This document shows positions 13,301 to 64,000 of a stretch of 64,000 bases of DNA, in pieces. The DNA is taken from NCBI GenBank assembly GCA_903813345.2, contig CAIIXF020000001.1, forward strand, positions 12,400,001-12,464,000. Reading direction: 5' to 3'. The position numbers and the translations under genes were made by a program. The notes under the pieces are model-generated. The model was given only the letters and a program-made list of their open reading frames with translations. It did no database searches and was not told the origin of the DNA. This stretch comes from Owenia fusiformis (Eukaryota). Positions within the stretch are counted from its first letter, which is position 1. Each line of letters begins with the position of its first letter.

Positions 13301-16300
13301 TGTATTCTGATCCAGAAGACAAAGCCATGGACCCTTCTAAGCTATACCCTAATGGGTGGCTTATGCCTGATTATGCTGTTGAGAGGGGGTCTATCTTGCC
13401 TAGTATTACTGGAGACCCCTTAACTCCTGATATACCAGCAGTTTGTAAGTATAATTGCACTTATTCTATGAATCCGTTCATTTCAATAAATAAAACCAAA
13501 GGCAGGCCTGTAGCCACGGGGAGGGGGGGGGGTCTTTCAACATTTTGAACCATTTTGATTTTGGGCCAAAATTGTTAAATTTGAATCCCCTGGAATTTCC
13601 AAAAACTGAGCTTCCTTTGGCAAAAGTATTATATTAAGATGTTTTGAATAAAGGTTCTTTGTACTCTGTAATACAGGGTTTTACATGTATTTTTCAGCTG
13701 GTGCATACCGTCTTCCAATCTCTAAAGCAAACTTGCCCACCATTCCAGTGCAGCCTATTTCATATAAAGATGCTTATGCCTTGTTAAGGTAAGTGTTACC
13801 ATTGATTTGTCTCCACATCAAATAGCATTAGCATGGTGTAAAAAACATCAGCATCAGCATATTATATATCACTATGGGATGAGCAAAAGTCTGTATGAGT
13901 GCTATATACATGTGCCTAATATGTTACAACTCATGTAATTTTCCTCATAAAAATACCTGTTATACATAGTTATACACAAATGTTAGGAATAGTGGTTGAT
14001 AAAATCGATGCAATATCTCAAATAATTATTTGATAATTTCATTACAGTAAGATGTCAGGTCCGGCAGGCCGAGAAGATTTCCAGGGTGGCTTTAACTTCT
14101 CATACAACATTGGACCCGGGTACACCCAGCAGTATACTAACTGGTAAGAACTGAACTTAATACAACATACATGTAGAGATTAGAATCATATTTTGGTAGT
14201 GTTGACTTACAGTTTTTAAGAATATTCAACTGTTTTAAAAGGTCTGATCTGCATAAAGCTAGTTCACATGGCATTTTTATTAATATGATATTAACATTTT
14301 ACTGTTATTTTCAGGACTGTCAAACTTGAGGTAAACAATAAACTAGAAATGAGGAAAGTTACAAATATCATAGGTGTCATCAAAGGAATTGTTGAACCAG
14401 GTTAGTATAATATTATAATGAAACTGGGGTGTGTCAAAAATCAATGAATTATTTATTAGGTGTAGTAATTTTGAATTTCATGCATTTTCAGTTTTTTAAT
14501 GTGTGACATTTCCAGGGCAAAAATATCAATATTTATCCGATGGATACTAAATATATATGGGGATACCAACACAAGATGATTCTCGTATACGCCACTAAAA
14601 TCGTATCCGATCCATATGACGTGATATCCAATCGTATCCGACGGATACTATTTTAAAAAATATTTTGAAAAAAAATATTTGAAATATTTTAAATTTTGAA
14701 GAAAAAAATTTGAAAAAATTGAAAAAAAAAATTGAAAATTAATTCGGAAAAAAGTTTGAAAATTGATTTATAGCAATAAAAAAAATGAAAAAAATTGGGA
14801 AAAAATTGAAAAAATATTTAGAAAGAATTTGAAAAGTTCCAAGGTTATATGCTCAGTAAAAATGAGTTACATTTTTTCATGCAATCATTTTATAAAAATA
14901 AGGTCACAGAAAATAAAATGAAAAAATAGAATAGAATTAGAAAACAACAACTTTAGGTCAAATTATATGAAGTCCATAAAAAAGTAGCGACCATCGGATG
15001 AATATGATATCCTATGATTTTCTCGGCTCTCATTTTTATCCACTCTTGGATATCGCCGATCTCCACTCATTCGATGCGCTCACTCGTGGAGATGAGCGAT
15101 ATCCACTCATGGATAAAAATGGTATCCCTCAAAAATCATAGCATATCCTCTATTTACTCAAAAAATATTGTTATTTATCCCATATTCTCTGCCGAAATTT
15201 ATTTCACTCTTTCACCACTATTGGAATAAGATATATAGATATGGGATTAATATATTTTACATACATTTGTCTATGAACAGTCTTTTGTGGTCATGATTTT
15301 GATTATGATGTCACCATCAGAAGTAAGTGATGACATATTGTTACAATGTCAAACTTTTTGGTGGATCGGGTTGGTGTTCGGCGTTCTGCATCTGTCACAA
15401 ATGGCAGGTGGTGACATTTTGCCTGTTAATGCCTTGTTTTATATTGTAAAAAATGGTGATATATCAATTACACTTTATAATTCCAATTAATTAAAAACCT
15501 ATTTTAGATCGCTATGTTATTGTGGGTTGCCATCACGATGCTTGGACATATGGGGGAGTAGATCCAAACACTGGAACAGCCCTTATGTCACAGTTAATAA
15601 AGTCATTGGGAGAAATTGAAGATGAAGGTAAGATGTTCTGTTAATTTATAGGTTAATATACAATTCAAAGATAACTTTGTGTTAAGACTTTCTGGAAATT
15701 GTAACTGTTGATGGTACATGTAGATTCATTTTGAATAATATTTGAACTAAATTGCTTTATCAGGGGTTCCAAATTGATAAATAAAAATATATGTTATTTC
15801 TTCGTTCAGTATAACAAGAATACACATCATAGACTGCATTTTATTACCCACGGTTGCTCTTACTTATCCAAGTGTAAATAAATTATTTCACTAATGGGAG
15901 CTAATTGTGATCCCATAATTCTCCATACATGCCCCAACCATAAATTCACTGCTGATTTAAAATCCCCGAGATTAGACTAAATCAATAAACACAATTAAAT
16001 AAATACTACGTGTACAGTTTTTTTATTTGGCAAAATAACGCATCATCGTCTAACCTTGTAATTCAGTCCAATAATATTTTGATATGAAGATTTCATTAAT
16101 TGATTTATAGCTTATATGAAACAACTATGTGGAAAAACAATCAATTTATGGAACTTTTGATAAGAATAAAGACAATGAGGACACGGAGTCACGTAACATC
16201 ATGGGGATGTTTAGTTCTTGTGTGTTTGTTTCTTTTCATCTGCTGGATTAACATGGTAATCAAGCCACATACAGGTCAAATAATAAAAGCGAGCATCGAT

Positions 16301-32900: not shown

Positions 32901-35900
32901 ATTTGTTATAATTCCAAGATTTGTTGAAATATACAGATTTACATCCTTTGTGGAAGATTGTCAGCCTTGTTATATCGACATAAAATGCCTTTATGAGCAC
33001 TTTTTCAGATTTGAATTTGTAGGCTATATTTCGTATTAAATGCAAATATAATTGATATGCTCTCTAATATGTTCTTCGATCATGACATAAGATCTGCGAA
33101 TATTCCAAAACATTCTAGGAATTGTTTATATATGAGTACCTTATAGTTTAGTTTCACAAATGGCGGATGCTATTTAGTTCAAATCCAAAAACCAGAATTT
33201 CTCTCAGTTTCGATGAGTCGGTAACTGCATATTATCTCTTAAGTGACGCAAAATATCCTAAAATTATAGTATGTACTTAAAATAGTGAGTCTGCCCCGAG
33301 TGTCCCGATCATTTCCTTAAATCCTTCAATCAAGCAGTCAATCGTTGTATTATATTAGGTACGTACCGGTTGGTAACTTTACTTTAAATTCTATGAATTT
33401 TAAAAAAAGTTTATAGAATCTCTCCCTTATAATAACCGAAATACCAAATAAAGAATGTTTAAAGTTCAATAGCTGGTGTGTTATCAAATTCATTTTTCTT
33501 GGAATATAACAATTATTGATTTTAAGGTCAATCTGTTCAAGAAAATATGTTTTTATATCAATATAAACACTGATAACAGGTTCATCTAGTTCTTCTACCA
33601 CCCCACTGATTGCGAATATATGAATATAATAGAACCATATTGCAAATATAAGTCTATACTTATGTAAAATAATCATATAATAGTTTATTTTTAATTAAAA
33701 GTAGTTTTAATATAAGAATATAAGTAAGTCACACACGTTTTTCAAAAACAACACGTCATTTCAGAAGTAATTTCTCCACTTCTCACGAGAGGGCCTCTAG
33801 CCTGTGATTTAGAAATAAAACCTGTGGGTAACAATCAGTTCTAAACCAATACATTTCAATTATAAATTCCGATTTTGTAATAATTATACGAGCTTTAAAA
33901 TCAATGTATTTATATATGTTGATACCATGATAATATGGAGTGCTATTTCATATTATTATTAAATTATTGTAATAATATTGTGCTTAGAACACTTATGATA
34001 TGAGGGTATGAGATGTGACTGATGGTGGTAGTATCATTGCTTGCCAACTCCATGGAGCCATGTGGCAGGAGTAGATGGCCAAACTTTTTTCCAATTTTTG
34101 CAATGCAAATTATGGCTGCTAATCTTTTGAGAATTCAGTCTTTTCATGGGCTTTCTCTAATTGAAAGCCCATGGTCTTTTTGATGATTTGTAGACCCCAA
34201 GAAGTAAGTAAAACGGTGCTTATCACTATGTACACACATAATATGTGATTTCAGTTATAATGAATCAGAATGTTGACAAACAAATGGAGGGGTGGGATAC
34301 TGTGGATGTTTGGTCAGTGCTATTTGTTATACGATTGTCTTTCTCAGAACAAAACTACGATATGAACATATTACAACTGACACATGCATGTGATACGATT
34401 AGATGAAGGAGTGGGCTATATCAGATAAAATGGAAATATTTTTAAAAATGGCATAGAGTGGGCTATAGTGGAGATTATAGAGATAATGAGAATAATTTGA
34501 AATTAGTACAGAGTGGACTAAATCAGGTAAAGCCAGAGATTAGACGAGGATAATAATTTGGAATAATTTTAAATACAAAGTGGGCCAGGTTTTAGGAAAT
34601 GATTTGATATTACAATAGAGTGGGCTAGAACAGAAAATATTGACATTTGTACAGAGTGGTCTAGATTAGAGATGAATAGAATACTTTAACATGAGTACAG
34701 AGTAGGCTGAATCAGGGATGAAGAGATTAATTAAAAATAAGTAGTACAGAGTGGGCTACTGAGATCAAAGATAGTGAGAATTTATCATGAGCACGGACTA
34801 GACCGAACTAAATTAGAGATAACAAGAGAATAATTTAGCATAACAGAATGGACTAAAAAGAGAGAAGAATAATAGTACAATAACGTCATTTCTAAGGGCA
34901 ATATAGTGAAATATTGGACCGAGGGCCGAAGGCCCAAGGTCCAATATTTCACTATATTGCTCGCAGAAATGACGTTATTAGTATTATTACCACCGTTAAC
35001 GACCAGGGCTGAAATAGCAAGAAAATCTTACGCACTGAACGATATCTAATTTCCCGGGGAAAAATTGCCGGTCCAGAATATATTCTAGAACGGTCCATAT
35101 GGACCACCACTATGACGTCACACATTTCTCAGGTCGATATAGTAAAATGAACCACTTCTAAACTAGCACTAAAACCCCTAGAACTGGCCCGGCAAGGTGG
35201 TAATAATACCGAATAACTGAATGGGCTAAATCAGATTTGAACATAATAATTCAATTATAAGTACAGAGTGGGCTACATAAGCGATAAAGAGAATTATTAC
35301 CACCTTGCCGGGCCAGTTCTAGGGGTTTTAGTGCTAGTTTAGAAGGCTTGGCAAAGGTGCTCAAACTTTGGCCAAAGGTGTTTAAAAGTTGGCCAAAGGT
35401 GTTCAAAATTTGGACAAAAGTGTTCAGATTTGGACTTAGGTGTCCAACATTTTGAAGTCACTCATATTAGGTGGTCCCAAGTTGACAGCCCTGGTACTAT
35501 TGTTGCTAGATGAAGAGAATTATTCCCGTATTACATATTTCTCATGGGTTCTCAATTGCAGCTTCTACGAGTATACAACTGCATACCCCCACGCCGTTTT
35601 ATACAATAATAGTAATACACCTGTATATGGCATATTATATAGCAAAACATATCTGTAGACAGTTATAAATCCATCAATCCCTGGCTATTTCTGGTTACCT
35701 GATCTAGCAATTAACCAAGCCCTCATTAATTAGTTGAACAAAGCATGGGTAAATCCCTCGTGGATTTGGTCGCCAGACCTCTGTCCTGCGTCCCCTGGGA
35801 TAGCCCTTAATAAAGATTTTCTCCATTATGATTTCCCTTGCATATATTCCTCTGTGGTAGTCATAAACATGCCAAATGATCCTTCAGTCGCTTCTAGCAT

Positions 35901-60469: not shown

Positions 60470-60856
60470 CCACTATAATACCATACATCTGTCACAAATA
60501 CTCTCTGTCACTATAACCTCATACCGGTCACTATAATATCATACCCCAGGTAGATAATATCATATTCATCTATAAGTATAAGTAAAATATCAAACATACA
60601 TATCATCTGTCAATGTACTCACAGATCTCTAACACTATAATCTCCCATATTTAAAATGTGTATGTACATCATATACTATAATATCACAGATCCATCACTA
60701 TAGTATCATACACACATATGTCGATATGATATCTGTGTCACTATAATATCATACTTGTCACTATAATATCATACCAAGGATACTATAATACCAGATCTCT
60801 CTCACTACAAGCTCACACATCTATCATAATATCATACCTCTGGTACTACAATCTCA
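60470..60856. repeat. Degenerate tandem repeat with core CACTATAATATCATAC, downstream of the FN3 stop codon
   Basis: Repeated cactataatatcatac / cactataatctc variants. Confidence 0.7.
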
Positions 60857-61066
60857 ACATTATATTTAAATTGCCAACCATTCACAATTGTCTATTCAAT
60901 CTGAACAAATCTTTCAGATTCCTGTTACTATGAAATATTTTGAATTCATGTATCAATATGCAGGACTCCATTGCATAATTGTCTATTCAATCTGAACAGA
61001 TTTATCAGATCTCAGTCCCTATAAATCATCATTCTGTAGGCCTATCACAATCTCTGTCTCCCAATC

Positions 61067-63685
61067 TCAGTATGCTGATCTCTGTGTTGAAAGTGTAGAC
61101 TGATTAGACATGTGGCATTCTCCAATCTGATTACAAGCAAGTATCAGGAAGCTATATTGAGTGTCTGGTTCCAGCCCAAACACCCTGTGCGTGTCTGTCT
61201 TGTACGTAGGGGTGCTTTTCCACACCTTTGTACCTGTGGACTCCCGATAGAGTAAATAGTGGGCGGTATCCTCGTTACTCTCTGGAGGACTGGGACTGAA
61301 GATCATTATTGAGGTAGTGAATGACTGACACATTGAACGCTCAATTTCAGGCACTGAAAATAGAGTAAAATAAATAATATGTGATATCTATAAAAACTAC
61401 AGAATCATATCAAGAAAACAAGGCCCTGTCTGATATTCAAATTTCAAATATTGAAATAAATAGACTACAGCCTTCAAGGATTTTGCTTTATCTGTGTTGA
61501 CCAAGAGTTCTCTAATACTGACTATATATAAGGGTTATGTACTAGGAGGTTTTGGATATGGGGTTTATCCAGAGGGAGATATGCATATCTACCTGAGGGA
61601 CCGTAGGGACCGAAAGTAGATGTGCATATCTCACGAGGGATGAACCCAATATCCAAACCGACCGTACATAACTGCTTTATCCTATACCAAGTAGAGTTTT
61701 CTAATTTTCTTTCAATTTTTTCCAATTTTTTTTTTATTTTTTCAATTTTTTCACATTTTTTCATTTTTTCTATTTTTTCGATTTTTCTTTCTTTTTTCAA
61801 TTTTTTATTTTTTTCACATTTTTCTCATTTTTTCTTTTTTTTCAATTTTTTCTTATTTTTCAAAAAAAAAATTCGAAGCGGGAAGATATGCCCTGGGGCG
61901 GGAGATATGGAGGTTCAGGATATGGAAACCTCAAAATCAGGATACGGGATATATCTTACCAACTTATCTCCCTAAAACTCTACTTGGCATAGGATAAATA
62001 GAGGATATCCTATGATTTATAAGTGATATGATTTTTATCCACGAATGGATATGATATCTGCACGAGCGAGCATAGCGAGAGAGTGCAGATATCAATATCC
62101 ATGAGTGGATTAAAATCATATCACGAGTAAATCATAGGATGTTCTTTTTATTCCATAGTTAAAGTCATCATCAGAATCGTCGGAAATTAAGCTATTTAAT
62201 TCGAATTTCCAAACGATCCGGCGATGTTGACACTTAGCCTCGTTTTGAGTCTGAAGTAGCAAAAATCCATAAACCATCGCATACGACGTCGTATGTCATG
62301 GCTGAAAAACCGTATGTTATGGTTAAGTGAAAATTTGTCAAAAATATCATATTTTACCACTGATTACAAAAATACCGTTTTTATTTTCACATGTTATCCT
62401 ATGAATATCATGCTAACTATGGAATAAATAGAGATTATCCTACACTTAGTGTACTAAATGTATAATAACATGAAATTATCCTATATGACGTTCAGGATAT
62501 TGGGATTATCCCGAGGCAAATATAATATATTTGCCCGAGGGCCGCAGGTCCCGAGGGAAAATATATTATATTGACCAAGGGATAATCCCAATATCCTGAA
62601 CCGACTATAGGATAATATGTTTATCCCATACCAATCTTGGTCATCTGGTTCACATTGTTCAATCGTGGAAACATTTTAGAATATTCATGTCCAGTTTTGT
62701 TTTCTTGGCCATGGGGGGACTTTCCTGTTCTCTCAAATATTCCCACATTTATTTTCTCGAATTTTTTGATTGATTAAGTGGATGCTCCTTCCCTTCTTTA
62801 AACCATCAAACAGATCCCGATAGTCTGTGTTTTCTCCATTGTCGTTTACAGTCATTACGCAAACGTTACAAATTATGAACAAATAAGCGAGCGGCGATTA
62901 TGACGTAGCGGGCAGATATACTATATCTGCCCGCTCGGAGCGGGACGTAAAGCTATATCTGCCCGCTGATGAAAATATAAGATTTTACAAACCGGCTTTA
63001 TGTACCTGTAACACGTCCAAGTATGGGATAAATCGAGTTATGTTTTTGTTATCATACCAAAAAAATATGCAATATCAAGTCATTGAATTACGCATGACCC
63101 AATCCAATTAGTGTAAAGTTAAATTCAATTCTCCTTCTAGTTTCATTCAGTGCATTTCTTCTTCCTCTCTGCAGACCCTTGAAATGACAACATTTTGTAT
63201 ATTCAAGAAACAAGGTACAGTAAAACCTGTCTAAGTGGAACAACAGTGGTACCTCTAAAAACGTTCCACTTAGGAATTATTCCACTTATAGAGGTTCATT
63301 AAACATTAAGTCAGTTGGTCTTGGGACTATGATGTGCAGTGTTCCACTAACAGAGGTGTTCTGCTTCTAGAGGTGTTCTACTTCACAGGTTTCACTGTGT
63401 GGAATACCCCAGAAAGTAGGAGGCAGGATTGCACCGAATGAAATGCTTGGAGATTAATTAAACTGGCAATTATGTACCTGGCACTCGACTCTGGTTTTTA
63501 GCCATAGTTGTACAGTTGATGATATCAGAGTTACAGCTGTCTCCCGCCCCATTGCTCGCCATGACGCAGAAATAATACAGTGTATCGCTCTCCAGGTTAT
63601 TCACAATGAGGCTGGTAGCAGTGTTGTGAGCCTGGCTGTAGCCAAACTTACGCTCTTCCAGAGGTGTCTTGAATGTAACAATCTC
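61067..63685 (-). CDS. 3' end (last two coding exons) of a fibronectin type III repeat protein; gene continues beyond the window
   Basis: Exon 63685-63478 (…NNLESDTLYYFCVMASNGAGDSCNS…) splices in phase 1 to exon 61353-61067 (…FGLEPDTQYSFLILACNQIGECHMS…TGA). Both carry the FN3 L-x-P/S-x-T-x-Y-x-F-x-V/I-x-A-x-N-x-x-G pattern. Confidence 0.88.
61528..61998 (+). mobile_element. Hairpin + split-IR element, copy A of the tandem cluster
   Basis: Palindrome 61534-61672, then tttatcctataccaagtagagtttt (61676-61700) pairing with aaaactctacttggcataggataaa (61974-61998). T-rich body. Confidence 0.8.
61995..62428 (+). mobile_element. Hairpin + split-IR element, copy B of the tandem cluster
   Basis: Palindrome ~61995-62150, then ttattccatagtta (62148-62161) pairing with taactatggaataa (62414-62427). 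Confidence 0.8.
62465..63032 (+). mobile_element. Hairpin + split-IR element, copy C of the tandem cluster
   Basis: Palindrome 62475-62616 with cccgagggccgcaggtcccgaggg apex, then tttatcccatac (62620-62631) pairing with gtatgggataaa (63021-63032). Confidence 0.8.
63218..63397. mobile_element. Tc1/mariner-like MITE
   Basis: ta|cagtaaaacctgt...acaggtttcactg|tg with internal (ag)tggaac/gttccact repeats. Confidence 0.7.
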
Positions 63686-64000
63686 CTAAATGTTGGAAAC
63701 AAATAAAGAGGTAAATACTGTTTATGACTCCAAGTATTAAATCAGCAGCTTAACTTATTATTTCCTGTGAATGGTAATCAGGGGGGTAGGGTAATCAGGG
63801 GGGGGGGGTAGCGTAATCAGGGGGTAGCCAGGGACCAACAAAAACAGTTGAGGCATTATATAAGTGAGGTAAAGTTTCAGCCAAAGAAGATACTACAGGG
63901 TGTCCTGGATAAGCTTTAAAATAATATATGACACATACAAAAGGTTGCAATGTCTTTCTTAAGAAATTCAATGGTAAATGACTTTCAATTTTGATATTAT

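Follow-up and report, generated by a model that had tools for sequence, protein, structure and literature searches.

Near one end of a 64,000-nucleotide stretch of Owenia fusiformis DNA (contig CAIIXF020000001.1, positions 12,400,001 to 12,464,000, forward strand; here called the window), three long imperfect hairpins follow one another, each with a short arm directly after it and the partner of that arm at the far end of the unit. The folding z-scores of the hairpin DNA relative to shuffled sequences are -8.7, -15.4 and -12.3 for the units called A, B and C, respectively. What kind of elements are these, what moves them, and why do they stand head to tail? Element ends were fixed by comparing the flanks of fetched copies (30 loci per family), which yields the following features for the stack and its surroundings.

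61070..61387, minus strand: open frame with a host fibronectin type III exon (Pfam fn3 at E 1.6e-8, which passes the curated threshold).
61524..61527, plus strand: left half of the original site, consisting of ATA and one further base, with the insertion point after 61527; read from the window sequence.
61528..61997, plus strand: element A, non-autonomous; ends from copy comparison.
~61534-61673, 61676-61700 and 61974-61997, plus strand: hairpin, internal arm and partner arm of A.
61998..62427, plus strand: element B, internal-deletion derivative of a 2.37-kb CryptonA-type element.
~62005-62143, ~62146-62161 and 62414-62427, plus strand: hairpin, internal arm and partner arm of B.
62167..62427, minus strand: remnant of the parent's upstream region and first recombinase codons; from translation of the B consensus.
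62428..62434, plus strand: first 7 bp of element C; the same bases stand directly before the hairpin in 29 of 29 other C copies.
62435..62475, minus strand: right end (41 bp, inverted) of a fourth family, D, at the position where the bottom strand is cut in the C left junction.
62476..63031, plus strand: remainder of element C, from copy comparison; whole C is 62428-63031.
~62475-62616, ~62620-62633 and ~63018-63031, plus strand: hairpin, internal arm and partner arm of C.
63032..63041, plus strand: right half of the original target, seven bases and then TAT; read from the window sequence.
63500..63690, minus strand: probable second fibronectin-III-like exon; translation judged by eye.

The initial annotation, made from the letters alone, had described three different elements with one shared design, and this description holds: hairpins and split arms are present in all three, and each belongs to a separate high-copy family. 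Some of its limits have moved. A and B had been thought to overlap at TAAA, whereas they abut, with 61997 as the last base of A and 61998 as the first of B, and C had been placed at 62465-63032, whereas copy comparison starts it directly after the end of B at 62427. A stub following B had been taken for another left end, which is true of its first 7 bp, the start of C itself. The remaining 41 bp are instead the inverted D right end, which matches D right ends at L060, L172 and L200; the remainder of D, a family of ~420 bp when whole, is missing. An order of insertion in which A was followed by B, then by C, and then by D into the C left junction fits the window, and alternative orders are possible. 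The stack probably lies inside an intron of a minus-strand fibronectin-III gene, between the two exons listed, with the exon at 61070..61387 downstream of it in the gene sense. Just left of that exon, positions 60480-60860 hold degenerate 20-bp tandem-like repeats.

Several other details of the window may be recorded here. The body of A (61697-61863) is a T-rich low-complexity tract of very variable length among copies; the distance between anchors in A copies ranges from ~330 to 575 bp, yet both ends are ~99% conserved. Inside C, positions 62907-62967 contain two small nested inverted repeats, and C copies at L067 and L084 are inserted in the equivalent part of C-like elements, where target-like sites occur. 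A further hairpin and split-arm element of ~330 bp with the same apex type lies at 34880-35210 (plus strand), adjoined by an inverted piece of the same family at ~35250-35370 (minus strand). An older hairpin resembling those of families B, D and K (76-81% identity), which probably belongs to another family, lies at 15009-15153 (minus strand).

A, B and C are real, young, high-copy elements. A first look at the animal's own genome (500 Mb) gave 1910 candidates for A, 1437 for B and 1904 for C, totals that are not equal to copy numbers, and the best copies among the 40 candidates scored per family are 96-99% identical. Hairpin and far arm travel together: a search with only the left 173 bp of A as the query recovered copies in which the right end is in place in 26 of 29 cases other than the window copy. 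The two parts, whose possible independence the initial annotation had raised against its own proposal, are thus not independent in A.

Two simpler accounts of the stack or its hairpins were rejected. A composite A-B-C unit is ruled out by the other neighbor orders that exist (B-A, E-A, K-B, D-B, E-C, A-C). Flip and flop of the apex, as in rolling-hairpin replication, is not seen among the A, B and C left ends, of which 103 are forward, none is reversed and 8 are unreadable. Two de novo structure scans proved noisy, with reverse-arm and tandem artefacts, and were replaced by a library of 11 families.

Target sites were read from 84 of 90 loci, after removal of the three window copies and of three A copies whose right end could not be used (L007, L014, L023). 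ATA occupies positions -4..-2 in 64 of the 84 copies and TAT positions +7..+9 in 59, compared with at most 12 for TAT at any other offset from 0 to 39. These copies show that the empty site is ATA-N8-TAT and that insertion takes place one base into the 8-base spacer, on either strand. Insertion of A-, B- and C-type elements without target-site duplication, which the initial annotation had noticed in the window, is confirmed by an overlap between flanks of 0-2 bases in 77 of 84 copies and by 15 clean empty paralogous sites. The latter come from 84 modeled empty sites, 31 of which had a spanning match; sorted by eye, these comprise the 15 clean sites with no gap near the junction (two are mutual duplicates), three sites gapped at or near the junction (L039, L041, L049), and 13 self, neighbor or low-complexity matches. 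In addition, a contig of run X1 joins both flanks of a parent copy, which is consistent with an empty allele.

The same geometry is visible in insertions of opposite polarity. Elements inserted on the opposite strand sit at the mirrored position, as tail-to-tail pairs separated by 6 bp (L048, L074); an inverted element lies 7 bp inside a left junction at L073 and, at the identical offset, in the window, where it is D. loxP has this geometry too: in both systems the arms end in ATA and start with TAT around an 8-base spacer, the cut lies one base in and the stagger is 6 bases. loxP, however, needs 13-bp arms and spacer identity, whereas the targets here conserve only 3 bp per arm and leave the spacer free.

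This target also explains the stack. The right end of each element terminates in ATA plus one base, and the target's N7-TAT then follows. The right junction is therefore again ATA-N8-TAT, and stacking results because each insertion rebuilds the site at its right end, where later elements of any family can be added head to tail, or in tail-to-tail orientation at a distance of six bases. In agreement with this geometry, 14 of 84 copies abut a library element at the exact predicted distance, as eight different-family pairs, five same-family pairs and one mixed case. Among left-end matches, a right end lies at distance 0 in 18, at 1-20 bp in none and at 21-300 bp in two. For the counts by family, 23 reverse-arm matches were first removed from 173 left-end matches. 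The adjacency counts are lower bounds, as the library holds 11 families. Random sequence (200 kb from four chromosomes) contains 236 exact target-like sites and 2 right ends, a background so small that the expectation is uncertain, at 1.7-6%, and the excess of adjacency has p = 2e-10 to 5e-4 across that range (1.7% to 6%). The proposal in the initial annotation that such elements preferentially insert at each other's ends is thus borne out as an excess of adjacency, although the self-targeting appears to be largely a by-product of target rebuilding.

The question of what moves these elements was approached through a DUF3504 search of the animal's own genome, which gave 34 matches. Five loci (L103, L105, L106, L107, L109) carry a 2.36-2.38-kb element with the ends of B, two of them (L106 and L107) as a head-to-tail pair. 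Positions 1-167 of B equal positions 1-167 of this parent (98.8% for the window copy, 100% for the consensus), and positions 170-430 of B correspond to the last 262 bp of the parent at 92-94% identity (93-94% for the consensus). B is thereby shown to be an internal deletion of a 2.37-kb DUF3504 tyrosine recombinase element of the CryptonA type. The deletion joint is also present in contigs and RNA reads of other runs, and the recombinase start codon near 62225 has been lost in the B remnant.

The parent's recombinase gene lies on the strand opposite the hairpin-first strand and has two exons, across which the R, HxxR, H and Y motifs are distributed; the protein matches PF12012 (E 1.7e-12) and PF25561, with a piece of PF00589 in exon 2. 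An intron-like interruption is kept in 5 of 5 copies, and the parent has no long frame besides the recombinase and no reverse-transcriptase-sized frame. The B parent is young and weakly transcribed: RNA run X21 gives low one-strand depth (0.25-3.5) over the recombinase exons and zero in two intron bins, and run X22 a weaker signal over the gene, whereas run X24 covered neither the gene nor the unique flanks. No splice joint for the parent gene was present among the RNA read matches listed, and no RNA data set was listed for the flank query. The view of the initial annotation that these are non-autonomous tyrosine-recombinase elements is supported by this parent with the same ends, and the long copies that it suggested looking for number five for B, with none found for A or C. 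Of the two groups that it had named, DIRS and Crypton, the tyrosine-recombinase type stands, and the group is CryptonA (DUF3504), not DIRS.

Other families repeat this relationship. A second pair of mini-element and parent is formed by family K and the recombinase element at L156 (100% and 95%), and L095, which represents a recombinase-carrying sister family, is 82% identical to A over the left 161 bp. For A and C themselves, no parent turned up at the loci inspected, which were 30 from the DUF3504 search, 30 from PF00589 and 30 of the 112 from a protein search. At least seven families carry such ends around a recombinase gene, each with its own end version, and pairwise recombinase identity among six families is 24-59%. 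End similarity and recombinase similarity are correlated (rho 0.77 over 15 pairs that are not independent), though the correlation owes its strength to a single family. Of 29 DUF3504 loci, 15 have a hairpin of 95 bp or more in the 1.5 kb downstream and 5 have one upstream, several of these loci being copies of one family; the random background is 10 of 120 tiles.

The R-H-R-Y motifs are also present in families G, H and I, and HxxR and H..Y in L213, whereas sister families E and F gave no match to the catalytic motifs of the second exon. The predicted structure of the sister recombinase at L093 (pLDDT 69.9) matches QRICH1 (E 1e-8), followed by Tre and Cre (E 1e-6), with integron integrase in 25th place. 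Among named proteins, the closest come from corals and bivalves, are labeled KIAA1958-like or ZMYM2-like, and show 41-50% identity. A distance of 2.4 kb separates two distant recombinase matches (G000:C9:15806877 and 15809281), which are probably another head-to-tail autonomous pair. At many PF00589 loci (L121-L148), a recombinase is accompanied by an 82-96 bp near-perfect inverted pair overlapping a ~115 bp imperfect hairpin; these pairs look like DIRS ends with an internal complementary region (ICR).

The ends themselves contain a further regularity. When right and left ends are joined, they form an arm, nine bases and an arm in 11 of 11 families of this genome, and the internal complement forms an arm, seven bases and an arm, likewise in 11 of 11. 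The internal complement is two bases shorter than the joint in every family, with a mismatched center in most. The initial annotation had equated the internal junction with the complement of both ends; the complementary stretch is present, but it is inexact, with seven bases against nine. On the hairpin-first strand of 18 representatives, G·A mismatches outnumber C·T mismatches 90 to 15; because the families are related, neither this ratio nor the 11 of 11 is a set of independent counts. One representative, L211, departs from this pattern: the inner part of its hairpin is inverted compared with related hairpins, so that C·T mismatches lie on the hairpin-first strand. The same representatives contain 29 tandem GA/GA mismatches, with TC/TC outside the twelve commonest tandem classes, and a GNA-type loop at most apices. 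Tandem G·A pairs and GNA triloops stabilize DNA hairpins.

The junction products are one-sided. Among 78 left ends near the family consensus, chosen without regard to their first 7 bp, these bases are the family's own, exactly in 70, with one change in four and two changes in two; the remaining two are interrupted by inverted insertions. No family heptamer was found at any of 147 right ends without a following element. Seven of the 147 are followed by a heptamer-like sequence without a known left arm, of which three are interrupted or diverged neighbors and four are imperfect and retain the target's spacing of 8 bases. Of the two products that a two-strand exchange lacking spacer homology would leave, just one is therefore seen. 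A two-strand exchange resolved by replication should yield both products, and the single junction type thus favors the exchange of one strand.

We consider it probable that A, B and C are non-autonomous CryptonA-type transposons that use a folded single-strand substrate of which one strand is exchanged. They would be moved in trans by the DUF3504 tyrosine recombinases of 2.3-2.6-kb parents. The hairpin-first strand would fold such that the internal complement pairs with both termini, and this fold would form the recombinase core, in which the 9-base spacer faces the 7-base spacer. The recombinase would then exchange the hairpin-first strand alone, so that a single-stranded circle is released or inserted and the junction is left for host replication to resolve, as in integron attC x attI recombination; transposition by such a folded strand would be replicative. 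The single-stranded fold and the exchange of one strand, which we infer from end design and junction types, are likewise somewhat more likely than not.

The strongest competitor is the model in print for Cryptons (PMC3212892; PMC13565253), in which the element leaves as a double-stranded circle and both strands are exchanged at a short repeat, here ATAN. The ATAN at the left flank and at the right end can indeed be read as a 4-bp imperfect direct repeat, double-stranded left junctions with the 9-base spacer sometimes serve as targets, and the clean excisions reported for CryptonF-1_cRei (PMC9977147) also fit a double-stranded circle. This model must face a joint spacer of nine bases where targets have eight, and a reciprocal junction type that was not found, although biased repair after two-strand exchange would also produce the observed junction pattern. 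Moreover, self-pairing of one strand is the only arrangement that makes sense of the strand-biased G·A mismatches and the constant 9/7 register. No intermediate was seen, and a circle joint looks the same as a genomic tandem. On balance we regard the double-stranded model as unlikely, if well worth keeping in mind, and extend the same doubtful standing to its corollary that the hairpin and internal complement have another role, for example as accessory binding sites, as a cruciform or in circle replication.

It is far less probable that these are Helitron2/Helentron-type elements moved by a RepHel protein, with the recombinase gene as captured cargo. The layout of a terminal arm, a subterminal partner arm, a hairpin and no target-site duplication is like that described for Helitron2 (PMC3627910), and this genome has 63 Helitron_like_N matches, many on small contigs, with intact RepHel frames of 2500-3260 aa at L281-L286 (G000:C5, C6, C1). 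However, the 20 kb around each of three RepHel loci (3 of the 63 matches) match none of the 11 families, and such cargo would have to be present in the at least seven families that each have their own version of these ends around a recombinase gene. The hairpins here measure 110-190 bp, whereas the 3' asymmetric terminal inverted repeat (ATIR) of Helitron2 is described as lying 20-30 bp from the end (PMC3627910). The target bears on this comparison as well. We know of no Helitron with a two-sided palindromic target and mirrored insertion points.

Least probable, and largely refuted, is a reading as non-autonomous DIRS-like retroelements in which reverse transcription would be followed by templating of the ends from the internal complement. 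In its favor, DIRS elements are recognized by an internal region that complements both termini, DIRS-1 cDNA is reported to be single-stranded (PMC7192593) and recombinase loci with an 82-96 bp near-perfect inverted pair occur in this genome. Against it, the B parent combines its intron-like interruption with the lack of an RT-sized frame and of long terminal repeats. The internal copy, moreover, cannot act as a template for the joint, since the two disagree in both length and letters in 11 of 11 families, whereas the ICR of DIRS-1 is described as exact (PMC7192593).

Relatives in metagenomes can carry the same layout. A scan with a profile of relatives, from which 80 of 253 loci were kept, shows a hairpin downstream of the gene in 22 of 42 loci with at least 1 kb of sequence there and upstream in 9 of 39; a single-protein metagenome scan and a viral scan gave no relative. 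Six complete metagenome elements share the layout, with a 7-base internal spacer in 6 of 6, and TAT is present at +7 in only one of their six targets. In one group, the hairpin is upstream of the gene and GA/GA is still on the hairpin-first strand, which hints that the G·A bias may follow the DNA ends rather than transcription.

Comparison with known systems places these elements closest to CryptonA. A single DUF3504 tyrosine recombinase without a C-terminal extra domain in an element of ~2-2.6 kb, the absence of a target-site duplication and abundant non-autonomous internal-deletion derivatives are all features described for that group (PMC3212892). What sets the present elements apart is a terminal hairpin of 110-190 bp with a split inverted repeat rather than classical TIRs, an internal stretch complementary to the joined ends, and ATA-N8-TAT as a palindromic target. 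Kojima and Jurka (2011) describe animal Cryptons as lacking terminal repeats (PMC3212892), the supplement of that paper gives terminal repeats as n.d. in two medaka rows of its 8 CryptonA rows, and a 2026 CryptonA paper reports no detectable repeats around its elements (PMC13465315). We read this published absence as descriptive and not as defining. A literature search with subscription journals, Repbase Reports and Dfam outside its scope returned no hairpin ends or palindromic target for CryptonA, and a prior description is possible.

With integron attC x attI recombination, as described by Loot et al. (2012), these elements share a tyrosine recombinase, head-to-tail arrays and, in the mechanism proposed here, a folded strand with an unpaired center of which one strand is exchanged (PMC3458562). 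Integrons differ in being bacterial, in having cassettes without an enzyme gene and in their dedicated attI platform (PMC3458562), whereas here targets are genome-wide and the folded site would be assembled from three separate stretches. The one-strand mechanism has been shown for integrons, with CTX phage cited as a fellow folded-strand case (PMC3458562), and is only proposed for the elements described here.

DIRS-1 resembles them in its adjacent internal copies complementary to both termini, its tyrosine recombinase and its tendency to insert into pre-existing copies (PMC7192593), and differs in its RT/RNase H, its long inverted terminal repeats and its exact ICR that restores the ends, none of which occurs here. 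Helitron2/Helentron elements fit in outline, with asymmetric inverted repeats, a hairpin and no target-site duplication, and differ in their RepHel enzyme, short hairpin and one-sided T-rich target (PMC3627910). According to a 2026 review, the Crypton mechanism has not been demonstrated experimentally (PMC13565253). Active Cryptons of the fungal/algal type are reported to excise cleanly and yet rise in copy number (PMC9977147), a combination that a replicative single-strand route would explain.

The elements of this window are a CryptonA variant with a defined target and end design. Animal CryptonA transposons are the source of the ZMYM, KCTD1 and QRICH1 genes, and we lean, by a narrow margin over an even chance, toward regarding them as a eukaryotic counterpart of integron cassettes, with single-stranded circles, a folded site, a minimal lox-like target and mixed arrays. 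If this is true, many marine-invertebrate repeats filed as Helitron2-like or unclassified would belong with CryptonA. The element ends are now known exactly, as are the target and where each strand is cut, and a young parent has been paired with a matching 430-bp mini-element; together these supply what is required for a cell or in vitro assay. Should the folded-strand model be true, a eukaryote would be using a recombination mode demonstrated to date for bacterial integrons and CTX phage, and the enzyme would be a compact integrase for which a short target suffices. Should that model fail, the end design still provides a rule by which abundant repeats that are easily mistaken for Helitron2 can be classified.
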